Counted from the stretch's first letter, positions 28,475-45,185 are shown. The stretch: DNA of 49,950 nucleotides from an uncultured Alphaproteobacteria bacterium (GCA_913047365.1 CAJWUK010000003.1:1-49950), one strand, 5' to 3'. Program-made: numbers and translations. Notes: generated by a model not told the origin, from the sequence alone.

Positions 28475-29719
28475 ATGAGTGCACATGAACACATTGTCCT
28501 TACTTCGCACACGCCAGTCGGCGCTGAAGCGCTGCGCCCTATCAATTGGGGTGTGTCTAATCCGATAGAACGTGGCCCGGTCATCGGCACCGTTACCGAT
28601 CCGGCTGCGCGCAATACCGTGGGCACCCATTCAGGCAGCTATTCGGTTTATCTAGCCGCATCCGTGGCCGCCGGCAGGCTGGACCCGAACTTCAAGCCCG
28701 ACCTGCACAACACCGCCCCCGTAGCCGAAATCGGCCCCTATCCGCAATGGTCGGAGCCGAGAAAAATCGTTTCGCTGGATCCGTTCGGCCACATGGTGAC
28801 AGAAATTTTCGCCGACGACCTGGCTGCGGGCGTCGATATCCGCCCAACCATCGCCATTACGCAGGCGCGACTATCGATGCTGGAAATCCGGGAAGCGGTT
28901 TCCTTGGGCCGTTTGAAGGCGGATGGCAAAATCCTGTCGGACAACGGCGATGTCTACGTCACCAAGGTTGCCGTCGATCCGGTCTGGCATCTGCCGGGTA
29001 TGGCGGAGCGGTTGAGCTGCGACACCGGCACATTACGCCGGGCCCTGTTTACCTATACCGGTGGCATGTATCCAGAGCTGGTGACGCGCAGCGATCTGGA
29101 AATCTTTCTGCCGCCCATCGGCGGTCTGTCGGCCTATGTGTTCGGCGATCCGAAAATGCTTGCCGACCAGAAAGTTCCTCTAGCCTGCCGCGTGCATGAC
29201 GAATGCAATGGATCCGACGTGTTCGGATCCGACATCTGCACCTGCCGGCCATACCTTACCCACGGGATCGAGATGTGCGTTGAAATGGCGCAAGCAGGCG
29301 GCAACGGGCTGGTCGTATACAATCGAAAAGAGGGTCGCGCGCTGGGCGAAGTTACCAAGTTTCTTGTTTACAACGCCCGCAAGCGCCAGGAAGAAGGCGA
29401 CAACGCCGCGCGGTATTTTGAACGTACCGAATGCGTAGCAGGCGTTCAGGACGCGCGGTTCCAAGAATTGATGCCTGATATCTTCCACTGGCTGGGCGTG
29501 AGCCGGCTGGACCGTTTTGCATCGATGAGCGACATGAAGCACGATGCACTGGCACGTCAGGGTATCGATATCGGTGAACGCGTCGATCTACCGGAAGAAC
29601 TGATCCCCGAAGACGCGAAGGTGGAGATGGAGGCAAAAAAGGCCGCCGGATATTTCACCAGCACCGATATCAAGGACGCGGACGAATTGAAGGACGTAAA
29701 GGGACGCGCTCTGTTTTGA
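28475..29719 (+). CDS. GTP cyclohydrolase II-like protein of the URC1 type (uracil catabolism)
   Basis: N-terminal extension (RGPVIGT, GTHSGSYSVY) plus RVHDECNGSDVFGSDICTCRPYL Zn motif and RKEGRALGEVTK. Confidence 0.88.
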   Translation: MSAHEHIVLTSHTPVGAEALRPINWGVSNPIERGPVIGTVTDPAARNTVGTHSGSYSVYLAASVAAGRLDPNFKPDLHNTAPVAEIGPYPQWSEPRKIVSLDPFGHMVTEIFADDLAAGVDIRPTIAITQARLSMLEIREAVSLGRLKADGKILSDNGDVYVTKVAVDPVWHLPGMAERLSCDTGTLRRALFTYTGGMYPELVTRSDLEIFLPPIGGLSAYVFGDPKMLADQKVPLACRVHDECNGSDVFGSDICTCRPYLTHGIEMCVEMAQAGGNGLVVYNRKEGRALGEVTKFLVYNARKRQEEGDNAARYFERTECVAGVQDARFQELMPDIFHWLGVSRLDRFASMSDMKHDALARQGIDIGERVDLPEELIPEDAKVEMEAKKAAGYFTSTDIKDADELKDVKGRALF

Positions 29720-30948
29720 CCGCTTCGGTTTCGCACACGGGACTCGTGGACAGCCTTATGACCGCATCGGCGGTGCGCGAACGCTGCTCTGATCTTTTCG
29801 AAAACGGACTGACCGGCACCCTCCCCTGGTTCGTCATCGACATGGGCCGCTTTGAATTCGCCGCCCACTCCGTTTTCTCGGAAATACAATCCGCCTACCC
29901 GGATTTGAACGTGCCATTTCACAGCCGTTGGCGGCATTTCGAATTCGACGGGGTCGATCTATGGGCGGAGTTGGCGGATACTGCGGGGCTGGGGGGCAAC
30001 CCCCGACTGGTCGCGGAAGGCGATCTCGCCATCGTTTCGGTTCTTCTCGATGCCGGAGCCGGACCGGACTGGGCCTATACCGACGAAGCAACCGGCCTGC
30101 GCCTAGGGCGATCCGAAGGCCTCGCTTTGGCAAGCCTGCGCTTGTTTTCTACCGGCCTTTTGAGCGCCGATCCCAGCGATCCGCTAAGAGCCGATTCCAC
30201 ATCTCTGCAACTCCTGTCCGCAGAAGATCTGGGATCCGCCATGCAGGTTGGCCCTGACAACCCCCTTGTAGGGCTGGACCAGCGGACGGCGCTGCTGAGG
30301 AGGCTCGGAGAAATCACAGAGGCCCGGCCCGACCTGTTCCGCAGAGATGGCATATACCGGCCCGGTAACCTGCTTAATTCCCTCGCAAAACAAGGAGGCA
30401 TCACGGCTCCAGGCATCCTGGCCGCAGTGCTGGACGGTTTTAACCGGATCTGGCCGTCGCGGCTGAAATTGGACGGTGTCCCGCTGGGCGATGTCTGGCG
30501 GCATTCCTGTTTGCACCGCGACGACAACACCGACGGGTTAGTGCCGTTTCACAAGTTGTCGCAATGGCTGTCCTATTCCCTGATCGAGCCGCTACAACGC
30601 GATGGGACGCCGGTAACCGACCTAGACGGACTGACCGGCCTCGCCGAATACCGGAATGGTGGTCTGTTCATCGATACCGGGGTGTTGTCCCCAAAGGATG
30701 CCGAGATATTCGAAACAGTGCACAAGCCGGGAGATGAAATCATCGTCGAATGGCGGGCCTTGACCGTGGCGTTGCTGGACCGGATGGCAGAAGCGGTACG
30801 CACAAAACTGGGACTGACGGTTGATAAGTTGCCGCTTGCCAGCGTACTGCAGGGCGGAACATGGACTGCGGGGCGGCGGGCGGCGGCCGAAAAACGCGCG
30901 GACGGCGGCCCGCCCCTTAGGATCGACAGCGACGGCACGGTTTTTTAG
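29716..30948 (+). CDS. URC4/Urg3 family protein (DUF1688)
   Basis: [45 protein letters not shown] and LQGGTW..DGTVF. TTG start overlaps the upstream stop. Confidence 0.9.
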
Positions 30949-30965
30949 TAACGGATAAAACAGTC

Positions 30966-31604
30966 ATGACAGCAAATGCACAGGTCGAGATCGTCGACCA
31001 CCCCCTGGTCCAGCACAAACTGACCTTTTTGCGCGACAAAAACACGGGCTCATCCCAGTTTCGTCAGATGGTAAAAGAACTCAGCCTGTTGCTGGCCTAT
31101 GAGGTCTGCCGGGATCTGCCGATCGAGCAGGTAGCCATCAACACACCGCTGGAAGACATGACCGCGCCCGTGCTGGCCGGCAAGAAAACCTGTCTTGTGT
31201 CGATCCTCCGGGCCGGCAACGGCCTACTGGACGGGATGCTGGAGCTGATGCCGACGGCCAAGGTGGGACATGTCGGCCTGTACCGCGATCCCGAAACCAA
31301 GGTGCCGGTGGAATATTACATCAAGCTGCCGGAAAACATGGACCAACGGCTGTGCATCGTGGTCGATCCAATGCTGGCCACGGGCGGTTCCGCTGCGGCC
31401 GCGGTCCACCGCATCAAGCAGTCTGGCGCCAAGCGCATCAAGTTCGTCTGCGTAGTCGCTGCGCCGGAAGGCATCGAAGTATTCGCAAGCGCCCACCCTG
31501 ACGTGCCGATCATCACTGCGGCCGTCGACCGGGGCCTCGACGATCATTCATATATCCGCCCCGGACTGGGGGATGCGGGCGACCGGCTGTACGGGACAAA
31601 ATAG
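30966..31604 (+). CDS. upp: Uracil phosphoribosyltransferase
   Basis: [22 protein letters not shown] and PGLGDAGDR. Confidence 0.97.
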
Positions 31605-31669: not shown

Positions 31670-32887
31670 ATGAGTCATAATGACCGCATGATTATTTGCG
31701 GCGGCGGACCCGTCGGCATGGTGGCTGCGCTGTCACTGGTGCAGCAGGGAATTCCGGTCACGGTGCTCGAATCTTTTGAAACCCCGCCACAGGACCCGCG
31801 CGCGGCAACCATTCATCCGTCGACCCTGGAAATGCTGCACAAGCTGAAACTGGCCGAGGGCATTATCAAACGCGGGCTCAAGGCGCCAGCCTTCCAGTTT
31901 CGCGATCGCACAACGCAGGAAATCATCGCCGTCTTCGATATGAAGCATATCGCGGACGAAACGGATTTTCCGTTCGCCGTGCAATACGAACAGTGGAAAC
32001 TGACACGCGATGCCATCGTGGCGGTCAAAGAATACGATATCGCCGATATCCGCCTTGGATCGGCCGTCACCGCCTTTTCCCAGGATTATGACGGCGTCAC
32101 CGTGGTCTACGAAGACCCTGCCGGCGAGATGCACAAGGTCGAAGGCCGCTATCTGCTGGCCTGTGACGGCGGGCGGTCGACAATTCGTATTGGGCTCGGC
32201 GTGTTCATGTCGGGCTTTACCTGGGAGGAACGGTTCCTGGTCCTGACCTCCAAACACGATTTTGCGGCCAGCGACGGATATCTGAACCGCAATTATGTGA
32301 TGGACCCCACCGAATGGATGGCGGTGTTCAAAGTGCCGGGAGACGACGATCAGGGCATCTGGCGCACGCTGTTCCCTACAGAGGGCCACGAAAAGGACGA
32401 AGACCTTCTGTCAGACGAAGGCGTTACCCAGCGGATACGCGGGGCGCGGTCCGATATGGATCACAACGATGTGCTTCACCGCAACCTCTACACCGTGAAT
32501 CAGCGTGTAGCTGACCGTTTCCGTGTGGAACGCATCTTCCTGGCGGGCGATGCCGCGCATCTGAACAACCCGCTGGGCGGGCTAGGGCTGAATACCGGCA
32601 TCCATGACTGCATGAACATCACCAAAAAGATTGGAGATGTCTGGTTCGGGCGCGCAGAAGAAGACGTGTTTGAACGCTATCACCGCCAACGACATCAACT
32701 TGCAACCGAATTCCTGCAAAGCGTGACCATCGAAAACAAGAAGCGGATCGAGGAAAAGGATCCGGAGGTGATCAAGCAGAACCAGCAGCAGCTTCGCGAA
32801 AATGCCGAAGACCCGGCCAAAGCCAAAACCTGGCTGATGCGGTCATCCCTGCTGGACAGCGTGCGCAAGGAAGAAACGATCGAATAA
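31670..32887 (+). CDS. FAD-dependent monooxygenase (MhpA/PheA-like)
   Basis: GGGPVG, CDGGRS and GDAAHLNNPLGGLGLNTG. Confidence 0.9.
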   Translation: MSHNDRMIICGGGPVGMVAALSLVQQGIPVTVLESFETPPQDPRAATIHPSTLEMLHKLKLAEGIIKRGLKAPAFQFRDRTTQEIIAVFDMKHIADETDFPFAVQYEQWKLTRDAIVAVKEYDIADIRLGSAVTAFSQDYDGVTVVYEDPAGEMHKVEGRYLLACDGGRSTIRIGLGVFMSGFTWEERFLVLTSKHDFAASDGYLNRNYVMDPTEWMAVFKVPGDDDQGIWRTLFPTEGHEKDEDLLSDEGVTQRIRGARSDMDHNDVLHRNLYTVNQRVADRFRVERIFLAGDAAHLNNPLGGLGLNTGIHDCMNITKKIGDVWFGRAEEDVFERYHRQRHQLATEFLQSVTIENKKRIEEKDPEVIKQNQQQLRENAEDPAKAKTWLMRSSLLDSVRKEETIE

Positions 32888-32915: not shown

Positions 32916-33908
32916 TCACTTCAGATAACCGTTTTCCTGGTACCAGTCGACAGCATCGGTCAGGGCCTCGCGCGCGGTCCGGGGAGCATAGCCCAGTCGC
33001 TGCTTCGCCTTGTCCGAAGAATAAAACATGTGATGCGCCGCCATTTTAAGTGCATCCACGGTGACGACCGGATCGCGCCGCGTTACCCGGCCGATCCCTT
33101 CCGCGACCCAGGCAACCGGATACAAGGGCGCCCGCGGTAGCCGCAGCCAGGGTCCCGGGCGCCCCGCATGATCGGTGACGATTTTTATCAGATCGCGCAG
33201 CGGGAGATTCTCCCCGCCCAAGATATAACGCTCGCCGATATCGCCTTTTTCGAAGGCCAGCATGTGACCGTCCGCCACATCGTCAACATGCACGGCGTTC
33301 AACCCGGTATCCAGATAGGCCGGCATCCGGCCCTTTGCGGCATCTATCACGATACGCCCGGTGGGTGTCGGCTTGATATCGCGCGGCCCGAACGGAGCGG
33401 ACGGGTTGACGATAACCACCGGCGCGCCCTCCTCCGCTACCAGGCGGTCCACCTCTTTCTCGGCCAGAAACTTGGACCGCTTGTAGTGGCTGACCATGTC
33501 GGATTCATCGGGCCGCGATGCCTCATCTCGAACATCGCCCTTGTGTCCGGCACCCAGAACGGCGACCGAGCTGGTATAGACAAACCGCCCGACACCGGAA
33601 TCCATCGCGGCGCGGATCAGATCCCGAGTGCCGTCTACATTGGCCCGGTACATCGATGCACCCCCGTCGGGAACCCATAGGCGATAATCCGCGGCTACAT
33701 GAAAGACGGCATCGCAACCGGCCACGGCCGGCTTAAGGGTCTCTAACTGCGACAGATCGCCCTCGACTACCTCTGCTTTCAGGCCGTCGATATTGCGCCG
33801 GTCGCTAGTCGGCCGCATCAGCACCCGGATATCGTGCCCGCCCGCAACCAGGCGGCGCGCCACAGCCGCGCCGACAAACCCCGATGTGCCCGTCACCAAT
33901 GCACGCAT
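32916..33908 (-). CDS. hpnA: Hopanoid-associated sugar epimerase / extended SDR
   Basis: TGTSGFVG, FHVAADYRLW, YKRSK and GPRDIKPTPTGR characteristic of HpnA. Confidence 0.85.
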   Translation of the reverse strand: MRALVTGTSGFVGAAVARRLVAGGHDIRVLMRPTSDRRNIDGLKAEVVEGDLSQLETLKPAVAGCDAVFHVAADYRLWVPDGGASMYRANVDGTRDLIRAAMDSGVGRFVYTSSVAVLGAGHKGDVRDEASRPDESDMVSHYKRSKFLAEKEVDRLVAEEGAPVVIVNPSAPFGPRDIKPTPTGRIVIDAAKGRMPAYLDTGLNAVHVDDVADGHMLAFEKGDIGERYILGGENLPLRDLIKIVTDHAGRPGPWLRLPRAPLYPVAWVAEGIGRVTRRDPVVTVDALKMAAHHMFYSSDKAKQRLGYAPRTAREALTDAVDWYQENGYLK

Positions 33909-33912
33909 ATGT

Positions 33913-34524
33913 CTATTCGCCTTCCTGCAGTTCGCGCGACAGTGCATATATATTGAAGGTCACGAAAATCAGCGTGCCGATCGTTCCCATCAGAAAAAAC
34001 CACCAGGTACCGGTCAACCACACGATTGGGCCGATCAGATAGATTCCGTCTTCCACCTCGAACGGCCCGATCCGGGGATACGGATCGGGGGCGACGCCAC
34101 TTCGAATTTCTACTTTAAACTGCAACAGCATGTTTATCAGAATTAACAGGGCCACCGCCGCCGCCAGCCACAACACCCAGTCCGCCGCGTCGCCGCGCCA
34201 TTCGCCGACCCCCATGCCGAGGAAAAGCGTGCCGTAACTAGCGGTCCCGGTAGCCGAATCGAACAGCGCGCCGAACTTGGATCCCTTGCCCGCCTGGCGC
34301 GCCAGTTCGCCATCCATGTGATCGATAAAGCGGGCGGCAATAACCAGTCCCGCCGCCCAATAGGTCGCCGTTCCCTCGCCCCATGCGAACAGTGCCGCCG
34401 CCGCCAGCCCGAGAACCAGGCTGACGGTCGTTATTTGGTTGGGCGTTACTATTGTGTTGACCAGCGGTCGCACGAGAATAGCGGCGATCTGCTGATCCCA
34501 GGGGGGGGATTGCTCAGTCGTCAT
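33913..34524 (-). CDS. CDP-alcohol phosphatidyltransferase family protein (B)
   Basis: TPNQIT and DHMDGELAR..G..FD; several TM helices; ATGA overlap with hpnN. Confidence 0.88.
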   Translation of the reverse strand: MTTEQSPPWDQQIAAILVRPLVNTIVTPNQITTVSLVLGLAAAALFAWGEGTATYWAAGLVIAARFIDHMDGELARQAGKGSKFGALFDSATGTASYGTLFLGMGVGEWRGDAADWVLWLAAAVALLILINMLLQFKVEIRSGVAPDPYPRIGPFEVEDGIYLIGPIVWLTGTWWFFLMGTIGTLIFVTFNIYALSRELQEGE

Positions 34525-37127
34525 GAGGCATCCTGCGGACGGACCGGCCACAGCCGCATCAATGCCGGCAGCACCATCAGCGTGCAGACCAGGGTAATCC
34601 CGATGGAAAGCGTCAACAGCTCGCCCATGCTGGCCGTGCCGCGATGACCGGAGATCGCCAGACTGCCGAAAGACGCGATCGTGGTCAGCGCGCTGAACAT
34701 CACCGCCCTTGGGGTGGTGGAAGCGAATGCGGCGGCAGCGGAATTTTCCGCCCTGGCACGGGAGACCAGATGGATACCACTGGCGACGCCGAGACCTATC
34801 AACAACGGCAGGACGATTACGTTGGCAAAGTTGAACGGCATGGATAGAATTACCGTTGCTGCCACTGTATAAAGCGCGGCAAGAACAAGTGGGATCAGCA
34901 CCATCGCGGTATCGCGCGTGGAGCTTAGAATCAAAAACACCATCCCCGATACCACGATCAGCGAAATGGCCGCCGCCGTCACAACGGAATTCACCACCGC
35001 GCGGCCGGCTTCCAGAATTTCGACCGGACTGCCCGTCGCCTCCGGCGCGATTTCGCGGACGGCATCGACAAACTTTCTCAGAGCGGCGGGATCTTCCAGA
35101 TCATCACGCGGGTACACCTGAACCCGCGCCCGGCCATTGGCCGCCAGGTATCGTTCGCGAATGCTCGCCGGCAGATCGCGAAGGGCGACTGGCCCCGCAT
35201 CCAGCGCGGTTGTCAGCCGGTTCATCTGCTGGCGGAAATACCGGAACACGTCGGCCTCGAACGCCTCTATCTGCTTAGCCGTCTTCAGTTTTGCCATGGC
35301 GAGGTTGAGAGTCTGCGCGGCCGTGACCAGTTCCGGCAGGTTCTGTTTCGGCTTCAGCATCAGGGTTTGCCTCAGGGTCTTGAAGGTTTCCTCCTTGTTC
35401 CCACTCTCCACCGCGATATTCGGCAGGCGCAACGGCGCCAGAAAAACGTTCATGTCCTCGATGATCGCGAGTTTGTCGTCCTGCTGGTTGGGGACCAGGT
35501 TGGCCGCGGTCATAGCCTTTTCGACCTCGGGTAATACTCTCAGGCGGTTGGCCAGCGAATAGGCTTCCGAAAGCGACGGCGCCAGCAGCTCTATAGTGTA
35601 AAGAGACGCACCCGGCGTAGCCGCCAGGTCGCGGAAGGTCCGGACCGATTCAGTGGATGGATCGCGCAGCTTGATGGGGTCAAGATCGAACTGGGCGAAG
35701 GGCACTGCTACGGCTGCCCCCACGCCAAGGATCAGCGCGCCGATGGCGATCCGCCGGTCGGGTAAGGGCGGTATCCAACGCTTCGGCGCTTCCCACGGCG
35801 CCGGCGGGGGGAAGAGGCTGAGAAAAGCCGGAACCCCGGTAAAGGTCGCGGCGAAGGCAATGAACATCCCCACGCCGGCAATAAGGCCGAGCTCCGACAG
35901 ACCACGATAATCCGTCGGCATAAAGGAAAAGAACGACGACGCGGCGGCCAGCGCGCTGAGACCCAGCGGAGAGGCAAGCGCGTGCCCGGTTCGGCTCATG
36001 ACTTCCCGCTGATCGCCGGGCCCCAGGCGTTCTTCGCGAAAGCGCAAGGTGAAGTGAATTCCAAAATCGACGCCGAGGCCGATAAACAGCACCGCGAAGG
36101 CTACCGAAACCAAGTTCAGATGCCCGATGGAAAGCGCCGTAAATCCGGCCGTCCACACAAGCCCCGCCAATAGAGCAATCAGAATAGCCACAACCAGCCG
36201 GAGCGACCGGATTCCCCACGCCAGCAGCATCGTCACTAGAAAAAGGCTTGCCAGCCCGGCATTGCGGGCGCCGGTGGTCACACTTTCCAGCTCCTCCGTG
36301 GATATCACCACGCCGCCGGTCAGCCGGACGGAAATACCGTTCTCTACCGTCAGCCCCGCATCCGCCGCGAGTCTGCGAATTTTCTCCATCGCATCGGCGG
36401 CGGGTGACAGGGAGGAAAAATCGACCCGCGGTTTGGTCAGGATGATCCGCCGGACGGTGCCTTCATCCTGCAGATGGTTGATCATGTTGCGCCAGGACAT
36501 GGGCGCGGGATTACCGCCGGCCACGCCTTCGGCCGCGACGGTAATCCGTTGCAAAACACTTGCAAGCCGGCGTGCCTGCGCGGGTTCTTCGATCCCCGCC
36601 ATCGCATCGCGTAGCACGGTTTCCAGACCGCGCAAGGTAGGATCGCGTGACAAGGTCGCCAGGAAAGCTTGTGATTCGGCCAGGTCATCCGACAGGGCTT
36701 CGAGATCGTCGATATCGAGATACAGAAGACCGTTGCGGACGAAAAACCGGTCAGCCTCCGGCGCGAACACCAGCGGGAAGCTCTCCCTGTCCGCGACCAG
36801 CCTTCGGACCAGAGTTTCCATCGCCTCGTCGGCGCGATCCGGGATCGCGGCGTCGATCACGATCACCACGTTATCCGACAGGGCGGGAAAAGCATCGCGA
36901 AATGCCTTGAACCGTTTCCGGAACGGTAGTTCCTCGGAAATCATACCGGTGGTGTCGGTATCGATGTCGAGATTTTCCGCCGCATATCCCGAGGCCAAAA
37001 CGGTCAGCGCCAAAGCCCCGGCAAGAACGAGCTTCGGCGCCGCCTGCGCATAGGCGACGATAGCGTCAACTACGTTCGCGAAGGCTTGTCGGGGGGCGCT
37101 GAGCCGGTCGGCGTCTTCGGCGCTCAT
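34521..37127 (-). CDS. hpnN: MMPL/RND transporter, HpnN-like
   Basis: Two-repeat MMPL layout; NLVSVAFAVLFIGLGVDFGIH and NFANVIVLPLLIGLGV..H. Confidence 0.85.
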   Translation of the reverse strand: MSAEDADRLSAPRQAFANVVDAIVAYAQAAPKLVLAGALALTVLASGYAAENLDIDTDTTGMISEELPFRKRFKAFRDAFPALSDNVVIVIDAAIPDRADEAMETLVRRLVADRESFPLVFAPEADRFFVRNGLLYLDIDDLEALSDDLAESQAFLATLSRDPTLRGLETVLRDAMAGIEEPAQARRLASVLQRITVAAEGVAGGNPAPMSWRNMINHLQDEGTVRRIILTKPRVDFSSLSPAADAMEKIRRLAADAGLTVENGISVRLTGGVVISTEELESVTTGARNAGLASLFLVTMLLAWGIRSLRLVVAILIALLAGLVWTAGFTALSIGHLNLVSVAFAVLFIGLGVDFGIHFTLRFREERLGPGDQREVMSRTGHALASPLGLSALAAASSFFSFMPTDYRGLSELGLIAGVGMFIAFAATFTGVPAFLSLFPPPAPWEAPKRWIPPLPDRRIAIGALILGVGAAVAVPFAQFDLDPIKLRDPSTESVRTFRDLAATPGASLYTIELLAPSLSEAYSLANRLRVLPEVEKAMTAANLVPNQQDDKLAIIEDMNVFLAPLRLPNIAVESGNKEETFKTLRQTLMLKPKQNLPELVTAAQTLNLAMAKLKTAKQIEAFEADVFRYFRQQMNRLTTALDAGPVALRDLPASIRERYLAANGRARVQVYPRDDLEDPAALRKFVDAVREIAPEATGSPVEILEAGRAVVNSVVTAAAISLIVVSGMVFLILSSTRDTAMVLIPLVLAALYTVAATVILSMPFNFANVIVLPLLIGLGVASGIHLVSRARAENSAAAAFASTTPRAVMFSALTTIASFGSLAISGHRGTASMGELLTLSIGITLVCTLMVLPALMRLWPVRPQDAS

Positions 37128-37756
37128 GCCCGATTGCGCCGCGCGTGGCCGGCGGCCTCCCAGATGGCGTAAAGCAGGTAAAGCGGCGTTCCGACCCCAG
37201 CAGCGGCAACGAATGGCGGCATCAGCCCCAGCCAGGTGACGGGCCCGACGGCGTACAGCGTGTCCTCTATCTCAAACCCGCCGCGCACGGTCTGAATGGT
37301 GGTTTCCTTGCCGAAGACGGTTTCCTGCCAGAGCCGGATCGAAAAGATCAGCGCGACCGACACGCCAGCCGCGATGCCACAGGGAACCGACCAGTACCCC
37401 AGCCAGGTATCGCGGAACCCGAACCCGGCGCCCACGAACATGGCGCAATAACTGGTCATCGCCGCAACATGGTCGAAATAGTGTCCGAACTTGCTGGTTT
37501 TGTCGGTTGCCCGGGCGAATTCACCGTCGACATGATCCATCCAGACCGCAACCATGAACAAAAGCGAGCCGGCGATGATACCGGCGCGGGTACCTTCAGC
37601 ATAAAGAAGACCGGACGCAATGCCGACCGCCATACCGCAGGCGGTCAGCACATTGGGCGAGACCGGCAACCGCCTGATCAAGCGCACGAAGGCCTTGGCA
37701 ATCCACTGGTCATAGGCGATGCGCGAAGGCGGGGTATTTTCTGTATCGGAAGCCAT
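37124..37756 (-). CDS. CDP-alcohol phosphatidyltransferase family protein (A)
   Basis: SPNVLT and DHVDGEFAR..G..FD. True start is ATG 37756 behind GGAGA. Confidence 0.88.
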   Translation of the reverse strand: MASDTENTPPSRIAYDQWIAKAFVRLIRRLPVSPNVLTACGMAVGIASGLLYAEGTRAGIIAGSLLFMVAVWMDHVDGEFARATDKTSKFGHYFDHVAAMTSYCAMFVGAGFGFRDTWLGYWSVPCGIAAGVSVALIFSIRLWQETVFGKETTIQTVRGGFEIEDTLYAVGPVTWLGLMPPFVAAAGVGTPLYLLYAIWEAAGHARRNRA

Positions 37757-37870
37757 AAATCTCCGTTCGGGCAAAGCCATAGAGGATGCGGGGAATCGTG
37801 TAAATCGCTCCTGATTTTCCGAATGGTTGCCGCTGTCTGTCAGGAGGAATAGCATCATAGGGATTAGAGG

Positions 37871-38347
37871 ATGAGCCCCATGTTCACGCTTAGCCAAACC
37901 ATACCCGTCAACGATACCCAGCCCCGTCTGAACCGAACGCATATATGGGAAGGCCTGGTGCTGAAAGCGGAAAACCCAGTGCCATTCCTGGAAGCCATGA
38001 GCGCCTGCGACGTGATCGAGCGCGGCGACGACTGGCTCCTGCGCGATTTCACGCTGCGTGGCGAAGACATGCAGGAACGGGTGACGTTCGAGCCGCAGGA
38101 ACGTGTCACCTTCGTCCGCACCAGAAGCAGCGCCATGGGCACGATCATGAACGAGATCGTCGAATTGGACGACGGCGAGATCGGATTGCGCTTTACCTTC
38201 ACATTCGACATCGACGGCCTCGAAGACGGCAGTCCGGAAGAAGTCGAATTTGCCGACCGCATGTCGAAAAGTTATTTCCAGGGCGTCGGATCGACGCTCG
38301 CCGAAATCCGCCGCCGGGTCGAAGCCGGCGAACTTGACGCGGCCTGA
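37871..38347 (+). CDS. SRPBCC/START-fold protein (DUF1857/AtaL-like); start may be 37880
   Basis: IWEGLVLKAENPVPF..C and ERVTF motifs. Confidence 0.75.
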   Translation: MSPMFTLSQTIPVNDTQPRLNRTHIWEGLVLKAENPVPFLEAMSACDVIERGDDWLLRDFTLRGEDMQERVTFEPQERVTFVRTRSSAMGTIMNEIVELDDGEIGLRFTFTFDIDGLEDGSPEEVEFADRMSKSYFQGVGSTLAEIRRRVEAGELDAA

Positions 38348-41493: not shown

Positions 41494-42582
41494 CTATGCC
41501 TTCACTAACCTTTCAGGCACCAGCACAGCCCCCCGCATGATCATCCTCGCCGTACGAACTATACCAGCGGCCTGAATTTCATGACCATTCGCCCCATCAG
41601 TTAGGGTCAGGGCAAGGTGAAGTTTCCCCGCAGGGTGTTCGATGGAAAAGCGCGGGCTATTATCGCGCGCAAACAAATCCACAAGCGGTTCGGCCACCGT
41701 TCCCGGCGTGATTGAGGCGTAGGCAACGGCGATGCCGCCGGTGATCGCGTGGGTCTGGTGTGTCTTGTCGGGTACGAAATACCGCGACGTGATGGCGCCA
41801 CCATCTCGTGGCGGGGCGAGGATGACGATTTTCGGCTGAACCTGGCCTGTCACATCGCCAAGACCCATGCGCTGGCCAGCTTCGCGCCGCATGGTCTCGA
41901 CGCGTTCAAAAAACGTGGTGTCCTCGTCCAGTTCGCCGGCGGATTCGTATCCCGTTTTTCCGACATCGGTAGCCCGCATGATCATACACGGCATTGCCGC
42001 ATCGACGATCGTGACATCGACGCCGTCGATGGTTTCCATCTTCTCGCCGGTGGGAAACAGCTTGCCGGTGCGCGCGCCCACCACATTCATGAAATTCAAC
42101 AGGATGGGTGCCGCGGTGCCGGGTACGCCATCGATGGCCGCGTCACCCTCGTATTCCACTTGTCCGCCGGGCGTCGGAATCACGGCTTCGACCAGACCGT
42201 TTGTATTGACCTGATAGATACGGACCCGGGTTTCCCCGTCTTCGGCTTTCACCATGCCGGTCTCGATCGCATATGGCCCGACGCCCGCCAGCATGTTGCC
42301 GCAGGTCGGCGCGTAATCCACCTTGGCTTCCTCCACCGAGAGCTGGGCAAAAAAGTAATCAACATCGGCATCTTCCCGGTCGGATGAGGACAGGATACAG
42401 GCCTTGCTGGTGACGGAGGTCGTACCCCCGACGCCATCGACTTGGCGCGGGTCCGGAGAACCGAACGCCTTTAGGAAGATGTCGTCCCACAATTCCCGGT
42501 CTTCGGGCAGATCGGCTATGTTGAAATACAGCCCCCGCGAAGTGCCGCCGCGCATGAATATGGCCGGAATGGATGTCTGCAA
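41494..42582 (-). CDS. PrpF/GalD family isomerase (4-oxalomesaconate tautomerase-like)
   Basis: MRGGTSRG, GSPDPRQVDGVGG, CGNM, EHPAG and RTAR. Confidence 0.88.
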   Translation of the reverse strand: MQTSIPAIFMRGGTSRGLYFNIADLPEDRELWDDIFLKAFGSPDPRQVDGVGGTTSVTSKACILSSSDREDADVDYFFAQLSVEEAKVDYAPTCGNMLAGVGPYAIETGMVKAEDGETRVRIYQVNTNGLVEAVIPTPGGQVEYEGDAAIDGVPGTAAPILLNFMNVVGARTGKLFPTGEKMETIDGVDVTIVDAAMPCMIMRATDVGKTGYESAGELDEDTTFFERVETMRREAGQRMGLGDVTGQVQPKIVILAPPRDGGAITSRYFVPDKTHQTHAITGGIAVAYASITPGTVAEPLVDLFARDNSPRFSIEHPAGKLHLALTLTDGANGHEIQAAGIVRTARMIMRGAVLVPERLVKA

Positions 42583-42628
42583 GCCAACGATCTCCGTTTC
42601 TGGGCCTAAAGACTAGACCGATTTTAGC

Positions 42629-43801
42629 TCAGGCTGAACCGCCGCTTTCCCTCGCGTAGCGCACCAGTGCCATGAAGCGATAGATCCCGTGGACAAACTT
42701 GCCATAGGGCATGGTAAAAAACAGGCTAAACACCACGCCCAAATGGATCGCCAGCAGCGCCCCCATTGCGGGCGTATCACGCAAGAACAGAAGCAGAAGT
42801 CCGGTCAGGCTGGTCAGGAAAAGCATCAGCAGGAATGCTACGTCCATACCGAAACGGTCTTTGTCCTGCATATCGGGATCACGAATCCACTTGGCCCGCA
42901 AAAGACCCACCGGCCCGATCAGCAATCCAATCCCGCCCAACGTACCCAGCACGACGGGCAGGTCCCACCACGGATAAGGCGCTTCGCGGCCCCAAAAATA
43001 GTGGTACAGCGTGGCTACCGATGTCGAGGCAAAGCACAGCAGGAAGCCGTAAAAGGTGAAATGGTGGTAAAGTCGCCGGTGATCGGGCACGTCGTCTTCA
43101 TCCGCCAGGCAATCCCCGCCGCCGCCATCCAGATACCGCAGCTTGCTGGCATCTTTCATCGCCTGCCAGAAGGATTTGCCGTCGCTCAGCGTGCCGGGCG
43201 AGGGGTCAGCTTCTTTCCAGAATGCCCGCGCGCCCATGAATGTCGCAAGGATCGCATACAGGAAAACCGCGCCGAACAGAACGACCATCGCGTTGTGGGG
43301 CATCAGCTTATAGAACGCGCCCGGCCCGGTATGGGTGCCATATAGAATGGCCGGATCGTTCCAGGCTGCGAACCCGCCGATGAACAGCGCAACGCTAAAC
43401 GCGGAAATGATGCTGACCACCAGCCCATTGCGTGCAAACAGGCCGGAGAACATCCGCGGCCAGGCATAGGCCTGATAGGATTCCGCGCGCACCCGCGCCA
43501 TCACCTTCGGCACGTTGACGTCGAATTCGTGGGGCGGAGAGAACTGGCAATCGTAAAAGCACGCGCCACAGCCATGGCACAGATTGGCCAGATAGTTCAG
43601 GTCGCCATCGGGGAAATCCCGCCGCGCGATCATCGCCGGGAACACGGCGCACAATCCTTCGCAGTACCGGCAGGAATTGCACACCGTCATCAGCCGGCCC
43701 AGTTCGGTCAGCGTTTCCGTTCCGCCCGGCACGGCGCTAAGTCCCGCCTTTTCGGGCTTGGCCAGCGGATCGAAGTCTTTTGCCTGGTCAGTTGCGGGCA
43801 T
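42629..43801 (-). CDS. tcuB: Tricarballylate utilization 4Fe-4S membrane protein
   Basis: CNSCRYCEGLCAVFP, LANLCHGCGAC..CQ..PPHEF and MPYGKFVH. Confidence 0.92.
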   Translation of the reverse strand: MPATDQAKDFDPLAKPEKAGLSAVPGGTETLTELGRLMTVCNSCRYCEGLCAVFPAMIARRDFPDGDLNYLANLCHGCGACFYDCQFSPPHEFDVNVPKVMARVRAESYQAYAWPRMFSGLFARNGLVVSIISAFSVALFIGGFAAWNDPAILYGTHTGPGAFYKLMPHNAMVVLFGAVFLYAILATFMGARAFWKEADPSPGTLSDGKSFWQAMKDASKLRYLDGGGGDCLADEDDVPDHRRLYHHFTFYGFLLCFASTSVATLYHYFWGREAPYPWWDLPVVLGTLGGIGLLIGPVGLLRAKWIRDPDMQDKDRFGMDVAFLLMLFLTSLTGLLLLFLRDTPAMGALLAIHLGVVFSLFFTMPYGKFVHGIYRFMALVRYARESGGSA

Positions 43802-45185
43802 TGTGTGCGGCCTCCCTGCCCGCGATACGGCCAAAAACGCTTCCGATGGTCATGCCGATCCCGGCGGCATATCCCTTACCCAGCACATTGCCGGACATGA
43901 TCTCCCCGGCGGCAAACATGTTCGCCGATGGTTTGCCGTCCTTCATAATGATCTTGGCCTGCTTGTCGACACGGGTGCCCAGATACGTGAAGGTGATCCC
44001 CGGCCGTACCGGATAGGCATAATAGGGCGGCGTTTCCAACCGTTGCGCCCAGTGGGTTTTCGGCGGTTCCAGCCCTTCGGTATGGCAATCGTCTAGAATG
44101 GTGTGATCGAACGTGCCGTCGACTACCGCGCCATTGAAATCGGAAACGGTTTTTTCCAGGGTCTCCGCCGGAATCTGCAGCTTTTGCGCCAGCTCGCCCA
44201 CGGTGTCCGCCCTGATCGGGGGAAACAGCGACGGCATGAATTTCGTCAGCACCGAATGGTCGAACACGATATAGGCGATCTGGTCCGGCTGCTGCGCCAC
44301 CAGCCGCCCCCAGATGGCATAGCGCTTCGGCCAGATATCCTCACCCTCGTCGTAAAAGCGTTCAGCGTGTTTGTTGACCACGATGCCGAACACCACGCAA
44401 TCCAGCCGGGTGATGATCCCGCCATCGTATTTGGGTGCGCGGGCATCGATGGCGACAGCATGGCACTGGGTCGGATCGCCGATTTCCTGGACGCCGGCAT
44501 CCAGCAGCATTCTGAGGATAGAACCCTGGTTGTTGGCAGTGCCGCGGATCAGAAAGTTTTCCGCTGCCTCGCCCCAGTATTCCTTCAACCACTCAATATT
44601 CGATTCAAACCCGCCGGCGGCGGCAACCAGCGCGCCGGCACGCACCGTTTCATCCGTGCCACCTATCCGCGCGGTGGCAGATACGAACATGCCGTTGTCG
44701 ATTTCCATGGACGTCACTTCGGCTTCGTACAGCACGTCAACGCCGATCCGTGCCGCCGTGTTGTAAAGCGCGTTCAGCATCGCACGCCCACCTCCTAGGA
44801 AGAATGAATTCGTCCGCCCCAGTCCCAGCGTGCCGCCCAGCGGGGGCTGGAACCGTACCCCCTGCTCCACGATCCAGTTCAGCATATCCTTTGAATGATG
44901 GATCATGTGGCGGGCGAGTTCCTCGTCGGTTTCGCCTTCGGTGACCCGCAGCAAGTCCTCGAACAGTTCCTCTTCCGGATAAGGCCCGGTCAGGGTATCA
45001 GTCGCCGCATCATGGGCGCAGCGCATGTTGCGGGTATGGCGAGTATTGCCACCGCGGAAAAATTTAGTCGCCCGTTCGAGCACCAGTACGGACGCGCCTT
45101 CAAGACGCGCGCTGATCGCCGCACATAGTGCTGCATTGCCCCCGCCGATGACGAGTACATCGTATTTTTGTATCAGATCCACCAT
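43788..45185 (-). CDS. tcuA: FAD-dependent tricarballylate dehydrogenase
   Basis: GGGNAALCAA, RGGNTRHTRN, RAPKYDGGIITR, WPKRYAIWG and GYAAGIGMTIG. Confidence 0.93.
   Translation of the reverse strand: MVDLIQKYDVLVIGGGNAALCAAISARLEGASVLVLERATKFFRGGNTRHTRNMRCAHDAATDTLTGPYPEEELFEDLLRVTEGETDEELARHMIHHSKDMLNWIVEQGVRFQPPLGGTLGLGRTNSFFLGGGRAMLNALYNTAARIGVDVLYEAEVTSMEIDNGMFVSATARIGGTDETVRAGALVAAAGGFESNIEWLKEYWGEAAENFLIRGTANNQGSILRMLLDAGVQEIGDPTQCHAVAIDARAPKYDGGIITRLDCVVFGIVVNKHAERFYDEGEDIWPKRYAIWGRLVAQQPDQIAYIVFDHSVLTKFMPSLFPPIRADTVGELAQKLQIPAETLEKTVSDFNGAVVDGTFDHTILDDCHTEGLEPPKTHWAQRLETPPYYAYPVRPGITFTYLGTRVDKQAKIIMKDGKPSANMFAAGEIMSGNVLGKGYAAGIGMTIGSVFGRIAGREAAHNARN

Follow-up and report, generated by a model that had tools for sequence, protein, structure and literature searches.

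The DNA analysed here (the window) is a stretch of 49,950 nucleotides (nt) from an uncultured Alphaproteobacteria bacterium (GCA_913047365.1, CAJWUK010000003.1:1-49950), in which an initial annotation, made from the sequence, had singled out a minus-strand group of four genes: a cytidine diphosphate (CDP)-alcohol phosphotransferase gene, CDP-AP(A), hpnN, a second phosphotransferase gene, CDP-AP(B), and hpnA (Table 1). The proposed gene order is borne out by the list of open reading frames (ORFs) and by family scans, and direct reading of the sequence confirms how closely the genes are packed. The hpnN start overlaps the CDP-AP(A) stop in an ATGA at 37127-37124; the hpnN stop overlaps the CDP-AP(B) start in a second ATGA (34527-34521 reads ..CATGAC..); and CDP-AP(B) is separated from hpnA, the last gene of the unit, by a 4-nt gap (TAG-ACAT-ATG). 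A GGAG Shine-Dalgarno sequence lies 5 nt 5' of the CDP-AP(A) start. The tight packing on the minus strand and the form of the junctions support the earlier claim of one coupled lipid operon, bounded by a convergent flavin adenine dinucleotide (FAD) monooxygenase gene and by a divergent AtaL/DUF1857 gene.

Both hopanoid-associated proteins match their families over practically their whole length, from residue 22 to 858 of 868 for HpnN (TIGR03480) and from residue 1 to 329 of 330 for HpnA (TIGR03466), an NAD-dependent short-chain dehydrogenase/reductase of the 'sugar epimerase' family. According to Pfam and NCBIfam matches of the other ORFs, the remaining genes of the window belong to unrelated metabolism and housekeeping. 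A tblastn search with 19 query proteins, along with Pfam and NCBIfam scans, found no homologue of shc, hpnH, hpnG, hpnE, hpnD, hpnM, ppm, ppd or the aminoethylphosphonate aminotransferase (AEPT) in the window, in agreement with the annotation as far as hopanoid genes are concerned. The window thus contains no phosphonate gene closer to the transferases than 12 kb on one side or 33 kb on the other.

A scan of one genome per species produced 80 loci with relatives of the two transferases. Counts were made on 52 of them (L002-L053), which contain full-length relatives; the other 28 (L054-L081), where only the N-terminal half was matched, at about 60 bits, were set aside. The 52 loci come mainly from alphaproteobacterial metagenome-assembled genomes (MAGs), plus Rokubacteria/Methylomirabilota and one Nitrospinae. 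The linkage of CDP-alcohol phosphotransferases (CDP-APs) to hpn genes, noted in the initial annotation, proved to be conserved, at least one hpn gene being found in the flanks of 39 loci: HpnA is present in 34, HpnN and HpnH in 21 each, squalene-hopene cyclase (SHC) in 16 and an HpnL-like protein in 15, and in 30 loci a CDP-AP gene is directly followed by hpnA. The suspected association with a cytidylyltransferase is also evident. A PntC-type gene (NTP_transf_3) occurs in 33 loci and is the commonest immediate neighbour, lying directly 5' of the CDP-AP gene in 31, while PntC fused to phosphoenolpyruvate mutase (Ppm-PntC) is found in five.

The usual gene order is hpnO, hpnM, hpnN, pntC, CDP-AP, hpnA, CDP-AP, ispH, hpnH, hpnG, shc, hpnE. 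The four-gene order of the window itself recurs in six of the seven closest loci (L002-L006 and L008, 67-85% protein identity) and is therefore more than a chance arrangement; the exception, L007, has no CDP-AP(B). In five loci examined by Pfam the module is embedded in complete hopanoid clusters, and two loci, L042 and L049, also hold Ppm-PntC, the phosphonopyruvate decarboxylase Ppd and AEPT. The megaplasmid of the betaproteobacterium Mycetohabitans endofungorum features a contiguous set formed by CDP-AP, a 2-oxoglutarate (2OG) oxygenase, an LPG-synthase-TM protein, a cytidylyltransferase, aepX, aepY and an aminoethylphosphonate aminotransferase, which runs on into dxs, an MMPL transporter gene, ispH, hpnH, hpnA, a glycosyltransferase gene, hpnG, shc and hpnD. 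In seven Rokubacteria/Methylomirabilota loci (L030, L034, L035, L037, L038, L040 and L045), family members are found with no hpn or cytidylyltransferase gene within 8 kb, and the donor or the role of the family may differ there.

Gene fusions reproduce several of these associations (Table 1). One protein joins HpnN to a following CDP-AP and another joins a CDP-AP to a following HpnN, mirroring the two ATGA junctions of the window. In other proteins the CDP-AP is joined to an HpnL/LPG_synthase_TM domain, in either order, or to the cytidylyltransferase. Tandem proteins with two complete CDP-AP domains were observed as well: one from the Nitrospinae MAG (L032, 1222-2523, plus strand; 433 aa), which has Gly in place of the third Asp of the family signature (D3) in its second domain, P0122 (390 aa) and P0124 (407 aa). 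Their existence suggests that the paralogue pairs may work as dimers. Fusions to a SCO1/SenC and to a HalD-like domain are unexplained.

Table 1. Genes of the operon and of its surroundings, third-type CDP-APs and fusion proteins.
Feature	Position or identifier	Strand	Length	Family match or remark
CDP-AP(A)	37124-37756	minus	210 aa	PF01066, 49 bits (cut-off 22)
HpnN-family RND/MMPL transporter	34521-37127	minus	868 aa	TIGR03480, 909.6 bits (cut-off 751.85)
CDP-AP(B)	33913-34524	minus	203 aa	PF01066, 47.3 bits (cut-off 22)
HpnA	32916-33908	minus	330 aa	TIGR03466, 474.1 bits (cut-off 367.65); PF01370, 125 bits
Divergent intergenic region, 5' of CDP-AP(A)	37757-37870		114 nt
FAD monooxygenase, convergent	31670-32887	plus
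AtaL/DUF1857, divergent	37871-38347	plus		PF08982, 98.8 bits
GTP cyclohydrolase II-like, DUF1688, uracil phosphoribosyltransferase	28475-31604	plus		PRK07198 type, 723.7 bits; DUF1688, 453 bits
4-oxalomesaconate tautomerase, TcuB, TcuA	41494-45185	minus		tricarballylate utilisation
Third-type CDP-AP	L013, 6401-7048
Third-type CDP-AP	L009, 645-1376
Third-type CDP-AP	L039, 6699-7910
Third-type CDP-AP	L049, 4591-5229
Third-type CDP-AP	L042, 10249-10905
HpnN-CDP-AP fusion	P0123		1079 aa	TIGR03480, 930 bits
CDP-AP-HpnN fusion	P0199		1089 aa	TIGR03480, 806 bits
CDP-AP with HpnL/LPG_synthase_TM	P0132			TIGR03476, 334 bits (cut-off 195.65)
CDP-AP with HpnL/LPG_synthase_TM	P0208, P0271, P0243, P0248
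CDP-AP-NTP_transf_3 fusion	P0173
Tandem CDP-AP	P0121			Nitrospinae locus
Tandem CDP-AP	P0122, P0124
CDP-AP with SCO1/SenC domain	P0148		427 aa
CDP-AP with HalD-like domain	P0157		476 aa

The genome to which the window belongs is assembled in 342 contigs and is 83.7% complete. It does contain shc, a point raised by the initial annotation, as well as all seven functions of a phosphonolipid core, spread over contigs C3, C89, C261, C14 and C240, several of them beside hpn genes. C89 carries the genes for Ppd, Ppm-PntC (580 aa), HpnM (TIGR03481, 195 bits, cut-off 160), a free PntC-like protein, 43% identical to the PntC found beside the transferase in L013, a BON protein and HpnG, and ends inside a major facilitator superfamily (MFS) gene. 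C136 begins inside an MFS gene and continues with the genes for SHC (774.8 bits, over the cut-off) and HpnD. The two contigs thus probably abut; if so, ppd, ppm-pntC, hpnM, pntC, hpnG, shc and hpnD would be part of one cluster. The aminotransferase (AEPT) is encoded on C261 and the HpnL-like protein on C240, while on C14 the gene for HpnH (552.5 bits, over the cut-off) adjoins that for a PhnY*-like 2OG oxygenase, which in NCBIfam comes closest to methylphosphonate hydroxylase (180 bits, below the cut-off). The latter pair, arranged back to back (L097, 1312-3673), forms a second junction of hopanoid and phosphonate genes in this genome.

The distribution of the family was evaluated in 301 evenly drawn Alphaproteobacteria. 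The family was found in 32 genomes, belonging to 29 genera (one genome, G240, is unpublished), and SHC in 93: all 32 carriers possess the cyclase, as against 61 of 269 non-carriers (Fisher p 6e-19), and in 14 carriers the cyclase and family genes share a contig and lie no more than 11 kb apart. A strong match to the Ppm-PntC fusion of the window's own genome was obtained in 27 of the 301 genomes (25 full length, two cut by contig ends). Of these, 25 carry the CDP-AP family (Fisher p 5e-28) and all 27 have a cyclase match, 26 of them over the cut-off. Outside the Alphaproteobacteria, a cyclase match was found in five of five Rokubacteria carriers, four over the cut-off, and a phylum-wide sample of 400 genomes added six carriers from other classes, SHC being present in the five examined (G496 was left out). 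The cyclase is therefore present in all 42 carrier genomes examined. The only family match of one carrier without Ppm-PntC (G292, C37:14413-14997) contains an in-frame TAG, and could be either a pseudogene or the result of an assembly error.

Hopanoids are major bacterial membrane lipids and geological biomarkers. Phosphonates constitute a sizeable phosphorus pool in the sea that is poorly explained. CDP-alcohol phosphotransferases catalyse the transfer of a substituted phosphoryl group to an alcohol, the donor being a cytidine nucleotide. From the sequence data, our preferred explanation, held at about even odds, is that the operon provides one half, head-group attachment and export, of a lipid pathway combining hopanoid and phosphonate, the rest of which is encoded on other contigs. 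In such a pathway phosphoenolpyruvate mutase (fused to PntC), phosphonopyruvate decarboxylase and the aminotransferase would produce 2-aminoethylphosphonate (AEP), which the PhnY*-like oxygenase may hydroxylate; the PntC-type cytidylyltransferase would activate AEP to its cytidine monophosphate (CMP) conjugate; and CDP-AP(A) and CDP-AP(B), as integral membrane proteins, would move the phosphonyl head group of the CMP conjugate onto a hydroxyl of a membrane lipid. The likeliest acceptor would be a C35 hopanoid, by way of its polyol side chain, with SHC, HpnH, HpnG and possibly HpnA responsible for its synthesis. HpnN, translationally coupled to both transferases, would then carry the product towards the outer membrane, together with HpnM and the HpnL-like flippase-type protein.

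With regard to the donor, the initial annotation had envisaged the attachment of a phospho-headgroup: head-group transfer is retained here, but choline, ethanolamine, glycerol or phosphatidyl groups appear less likely than an AEP-type phosphonate presented as a CMP conjugate. A CMP-phosphonate and a lipid alcohol are the most economical pair of substrates, since a PntC-type enzyme is the constant neighbour of the transferases and their nearest relatives of solved structure are AF2299 and the choline/ethanolamine phosphotransferases. Ciliate enzymes of the ethanolamine phosphotransferase type reportedly accept CMP-aminoethylphosphonate. PntC enzymes prefer to activate AEP (PMC6697681). The choice of a hopanoid as acceptor is suggested by the strict co-occurrence with the cyclase, by the interleaving with hpnA, hpnH and ispH and by the fusions to HpnN and HpnL. 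We infer a CMP-phosphonate as donor and a hopanoid as acceptor, and likewise the part assigned to HpnA.

The operon brings together two separate fields, hopanoids and phosphonates, through a transferase family that is fused or coupled to a hopanoid exporter and is found only in cyclase-bearing genomes among those examined. A phosphorus-bearing hopanoid, if real, could give a name to the product of a very common orphan cluster and assign a role to orphan hpn genes. Phosphono-hopanoids would be an undescribed lipid class, a hidden sink of marine phosphonate and a class of biomarkers so far missed.

Systems of this kind have in part been predicted already. The 'Burkholderiales_CDP-OH' group, which accounts for 318 of 882 ppm neighbourhoods, about a third, has been equated with the Group 1 phosphonolipids of Yu et al. 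2013, and according to the same report no phosphonolipid has been characterised from it (Li & Horsman 2022, PMC8942020). A 'possible phosphonoterpene' is mentioned in the available part of that report for Nitrosococcus only, where squalene synthase and cyclases are named. Wang et al. 2020 describe an antiSMASH 'phosphonate-terpene' call (PMC7285500), and genome mining of Acetobacteraceae in 2021 found terpenoid genes near the mutase, suggesting 'an undiscovered terpene-phosphonate' (PMC8776678). The view of the operon as a candidate undescribed system, given in the initial annotation, holds for the product, which is uncharacterised, but not for the transferase family, already named 'Group 1 phosphonolipid' or 'Burkholderiales_CDP-OH', nor for the idea of a terpene-phosphonate, on which others have speculated in print.

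The likeness to this group is substantial. By tblastn, transferases 34.6-38.8% identical to CDP-AP(A), over 85-100% of its length, were found in 14 records, plasmids or chromids, from Mycetohabitans, Burkholderia and Cupriavidus. The annotated neighbours are those of a seven-gene core made of Ppm-PntC, Ppd, AEPT, a 2OG oxygenase, a free PntC, the CDP-OH transferase and an LPG-synthase-TM/HpnL-like protein. In contrast, the transferase of the window is represented by two old paralogues, both lacking a fourth Asp which the Burkholderia type retains, and these lie apart from the phosphonate genes and are tightly joined to hpnN and hpnA; a link of the group to hopanoid genes is absent from the available part of the published description (PMC8942020). 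The system can thus be described as a variant, duplicated, devoid of the fourth Asp and tightly joined to hpnN, of a head-group transferase system that had been predicted but not characterised.

The resemblance to hpn clusters consists in the scores of HpnN and HpnA, above the TIGRFAM cut-offs, and in the position of the relatives' module, between hpnM/hpnN and ispH-hpnH-hpnG-shc-hpnE. The hopanoid pathway described in the available part of a 2025 alphaproteobacterial survey, however, includes no CDP-AP, cytidylyltransferase or phosphonate gene; the same survey considers hpnA, hpnB, hpnL and hpnM to be of unknown function, and sees no obvious further candidate genes near hopanoid clusters (PMC12583986). 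In line with the initial annotation, the literature searched yielded no characterised CDP-AP step in hopanoid biosynthesis. Searches of the open literature for a link of HpnN to a CDP-alcohol, or of a hopanoid to a phosphonolipid or to a phosphonate and a cytidylyltransferase, returned only unrelated reviews and papers on the methylerythritol phosphate (MEP) pathway. Finally, IPCT-DIPPS (4mnd) offers a parallel for a cytidylyltransferase feeding a CDP-AP, P0173 being such a fusion, and weak DIPPS equivalog matches were found. DIPPS, however, joins two soluble inositol phosphates, whereas the context here, with an RND exporter, a flippase-like protein and the MlaC-like HpnM, points to a lipid product.

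Several observations weigh against a phosphonate-bearing hopanoid. HpnN scores 711.6 bits against NF052374, the equivalog of the characterised hopanoid transporter, below its cut-off of 1100. The evidence for the hopanoid acceptor consists throughout of genomic context, co-occurrence and fusions. No hpn gene is found in the flanks of 13 of the 52 loci (seven from Rokubacteria/Methylomirabilota, two on contigs shorter than 3.4 kb, the phosphonate cluster L050 and three others), nor within 14 kb of the seven-gene phosphonolipid core of Burkholderia cenocepacia. The Fisher figures overstate the association, because related genomes are not independent and hopanoid producers are common (93 of 301). 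Seven of the 32 alphaproteobacterial carriers have no Ppm-PntC at E 1e-40 or better, three of the seven being less than 90% complete, and Ppm-PntC is present in one of the five Rokubacteria carriers and absent from four, which excludes a phosphonate as the universal donor. Both transferases of the window lack the fourth Asp, and CDP-AP(B) is also without the two His residues typical of A. The literature searched, most subscription journals and supplements lying outside the search, contained no phosphorus-bearing hopanoid; in the available part of the 2025 survey the term 'CDP' is absent and the four occurrences of 'phosph' are unrelated to such a compound (PMC12583986). For the Burkholderiales_CDP-OH cluster, the product predicted in the literature is a phosphonolipid and not a hopanoid (PMC8942020).

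A serious rival, although on the unlikely side, is that the product is a classical phosphonolipid, in which AEP is attached to diacylglycerol or to another non-hopanoid lipid alcohol, and that the link to hpn genes reflects co-regulated remodelling of the outer membrane, perhaps with shared export through HpnN, HpnM and HpnL. The published prediction and the B. cenocepacia core agree with this explanation, as do L050 and L046, where phosphonate genes accompany the transferase with no hpn gene in the available flanks, and the solved relatives CHPT1/CEPT1, which we take to use diacylglycerol. Against it, diacylglycerol is universal, yet SHC is present in 42 of 42 carriers examined. The genes are moreover interleaved with hpnA, hpnH and ispH, not merely near to them, and the fusion partners HpnN and HpnL belong to families defined by their association with hopanoids.

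That the same chemistry is served by a phosphate-ester donor is distinctly unlikely. The neighbouring cytidylyltransferase might supply phosphoethanolamine, phosphocholine or a similar phosphate ester as a CDP-alcohol, the phosphonate genes being a lineage-specific alternative supply. This would fit the carriers devoid of Ppm-PntC, both alphaproteobacterial (7 of 32) and rokubacterial (4 of 5), the rarity of Ppm-PntC in locus flanks (5 of 52) as compared with the free cytidylyltransferase (33 of 52), and the relationship of PntC to the LicC-type phosphocholine cytidylyltransferase family, after which the Mycetohabitans gene is annotated. Gene absences in incomplete genomes are, however, weak evidence, the family occurs in 25 of the 27 genomes with Ppm-PntC, and the genome containing the window has the whole AEP pathway, with Ppm-PntC located beside hpnM, the free PntC and hpnG.

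The proposal of a hopanoid-phosphonate transferase also requires the two CDP-APs to be enzymes. CDP-AP(A) and CDP-AP(B) are paralogues (34% identical, E 1e-19, BLASTP), and members of the family are about 200 aa long, with five to six hydrophobic segments. The superfamily signature, which we take to be D1-x-x-D2-G-x-x-A-R ... G-x-x-x-D3-x-x-x-D4, is not found in full in either. CDP-AP(A) reads D74-H-x-D77-G-x-x-A-R ... G91-H-Y-x-D95-H, with Ala at residue 99, the position of the fourth Asp, and has a G-F-E-I-E-D loop at residues 160-165; the His directly after D3 is presumably a feature shared with the eukaryotic choline/ethanolamine enzymes. In CDP-AP(B), the residues D1, D2, G, A, R, G and D3 are retained, the position of the fourth Asp is occupied by Gly, and an F-E-V-E-D loop is present.

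Conservation was assessed in 81 main-family rows, the canonical proteins and a divergent third type being counted apart. D1, D2, G, A, R and G show no variation across the 81 rows and D3 is found in 80, while the fourth position includes Ala (37 rows), Gly (28), Asp (7) and Val (4). The F-E-x-E-D loop, kept in 75-80 of the 81 rows, is specific to the family; the hydropathy plot would place it between the fourth and the fifth hydrophobic segments, on the cytoplasmic side shared with the signature. Both window genes are under purifying selection, dN/dS being about 0.1-0.2 for CDP-AP(A) against four orthologues and about 0.13-0.22 for CDP-AP(B) against three, with dS near saturation.

By profile, the best matches of solved structure are AF2299 and CHPT1/CEPT1 (4o6m, 9uet and 8gyw; 36, 35 and 34 bits), ahead of PIPS (30 bits) and PgsA (19 bits); the substrates of CHPT1/CEPT1 are a CDP-activated head group and a lipid alcohol. 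In common with the CDP-APs of the window, these relatives have the D-x-x-D-G-x-x-A-R ... G-x-x-x-D core, located in the second and third membrane helices, and the predicted reaction type, in which a nucleotide-activated head group is joined to a lipid alcohol. They differ in that the matches span only the first 95-125 residues or so, and in that the CDP-APs of the window lack the fourth Asp, feature the F-E-x-E-D loop and would probably use a CMP-phosphonate donor.

The fourth Asp is presumably the catalytic base in solved CDP-AP members. Its loss could mean that CDP-AP(A) and CDP-AP(B) are pseudoenzyme subunits, binding a CDP/CMP ligand or a lipid and scaffolding or regulating HpnN or HpnL, but this we regard as improbable. 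The residue is missing in 74 of the 81 rows and retained by the canonical proteins (2/2), by the third type (5/5) and by the Burkholderia type; the loss of the conserved His residues in CDP-AP(B), the fusions to transporters and the lack of a clade member bearing D4 among the four PF01066 matches of the 83.7%-complete assembly would be compatible with a non-catalytic function. On the other side stand the signature residues expected to hold metal and nucleotide, unchanged in practically all rows, the acidic loop, by hydropathy on the side of the signature, and the cytidylyltransferase as the commonest direct neighbour (31 of 52 loci), which is sensible only if a CMP/CDP donor is consumed; moreover, genomes such as this one would possess a donor pathway and no transferase. 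The invariant residues, the conserved loop and the absence of a D4-bearing clade member from the assembly favour proteins that may still be catalytic, perhaps by means of the F-E-x-E-D loop or, in CDP-AP(A), of the His beside D3. The system could then reveal how an enzyme of this type operates in the absence of the residue presumed to be the catalytic base.

In its most detailed form, the hopanoid-phosphonate proposal is tentative, and less assured than the general scheme: the polyol side chain of a hopanoid would be esterified to AEP, or to its 1-hydroxy form, by a CDP-AP pair devoid of the fourth Asp, possibly a heterodimer using the cytoplasmic F-E-x-E-D loop, and the product would be handed directly to HpnN, in a system widespread in marine Alphaproteobacteria and Burkholderiaceae.

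That the two genes encode ordinary phospholipid synthases (PgsA, PssA, Pcs or phosphatidylinositol phosphate synthase), placed by chance beside hpnN, can be dismissed as most improbable, and a PgsA, PssA or Pcs identity is ruled out as far as sequence and context go: a weak resemblance to inositol-phosphate-type synthases (52 bits) and some automatic labels, among them 'phosphatidylglycerophosphate synthase' and 'archaetidylinositol phosphate synthase', are outweighed by equivalog scores far below the cut-offs, by the canonical genes located elsewhere, by the separate clade and by the conserved context. For CDP-AP(A) and CDP-AP(B), respectively, the NCBIfam scores are 25.5 and 24.7 bits for pgsA (cut-off 109.1), 24.4 and 22.8 for pssA (107), 37 and 48.5 for PIPSynth (170), and 52.6 and 52.1 for archaetidylinositol phosphate synthase (180), the latter being the best score of CDP-AP(A); the ClsA cut-off is likewise not reached by either. 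Two of the four PF01066 matches in the genome are canonical proteins encoded elsewhere, at 130.6 and 106 bits. A tree was built from 88 rows, namely family members from the fetched loci, 86 of them context-linked, and the two canonical proteins, by a quick LG+G4 search; some branches are long and the deep order within the family is unsure. A long branch, 99% supported, sets the 86 context-linked proteins apart from the canonical pair. The proteins of the window therefore do not cluster with the ordinary enzymes, an outcome on which the initial annotation had made its reading depend.

Within the family, CDP-AP(A) belongs to a 30-row clade, mostly encoded directly 3' of a cytidylyltransferase gene, and CDP-AP(B) to one of 25-28 rows, mostly encoded 3' of hpnA; the Burkholderia and Mycetohabitans proteins form a third clade inside the family, and Cupriavidus proteins likewise fall within the family. 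The family is small, a profile search run exhaustively over 1.84 billion proteins having retrieved 128 representative clusters with E values of 1e-30 or better. The divergent third type of CDP-AP (Table 1), which scores 58-82 bits against the family profile and keeps the fourth Asp, is encoded beside the A and B types in some clusters; none was found in the window's own genome.

The intergenic region preceding CDP-AP(A) is probably the promoter region of the operon. It contains a weak sigma-70-like match (37843-37814, minus strand, 9/12), and promoter-like sites are not above chance, two being seen as against 1.6 expected in shuffled sequences. In the terminator scan, every terminator-like match falls within coding sequence and none outside it. 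One RNA run, X18, yielded three short contigs, two of which fit the operon: the first, 36954-37156, shows 0 differences and extends 32 nt across the CDP-AP(A)/hpnN overlap, and the second covers 37592-37742. Run X19 contained no contig matching the operon. As an RNA library can contain DNA and contigs give neither strand nor level, the X18 contigs are at most a weak hint of transcription. Near-identical DNA is present in sequencing runs of 11 studies, labelled as marine or seawater metagenomes.

A minus-strand ORF of 132 aa (37864-38262) was evaluated as a possible fifth gene and ruled out: it has no family match, and the opposite strand codes for a good AtaL/DUF1857 protein, of which the ORF is the antisense shadow. 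The antisense frame of AtaL gave apparent matches just 5' of CDP-AP(A) in L002 and L004-L008, from which it follows that the position of the AtaL gene is kept in six of the seven nearest relatives. The protein, whose fold we take to be SRPBCC/START-like, is a possible lipid-binding accessory.

Two other gene rows were observed in the window. The GTP cyclohydrolase II-like, DUF1688 and uracil phosphoribosyltransferase genes are consecutive, in an arrangement presumably resembling the URC set for uracil catabolism of yeasts. The tricarballylate utilisation genes lie beside an acyl-CoA ligase gene and represent ordinary catabolism.

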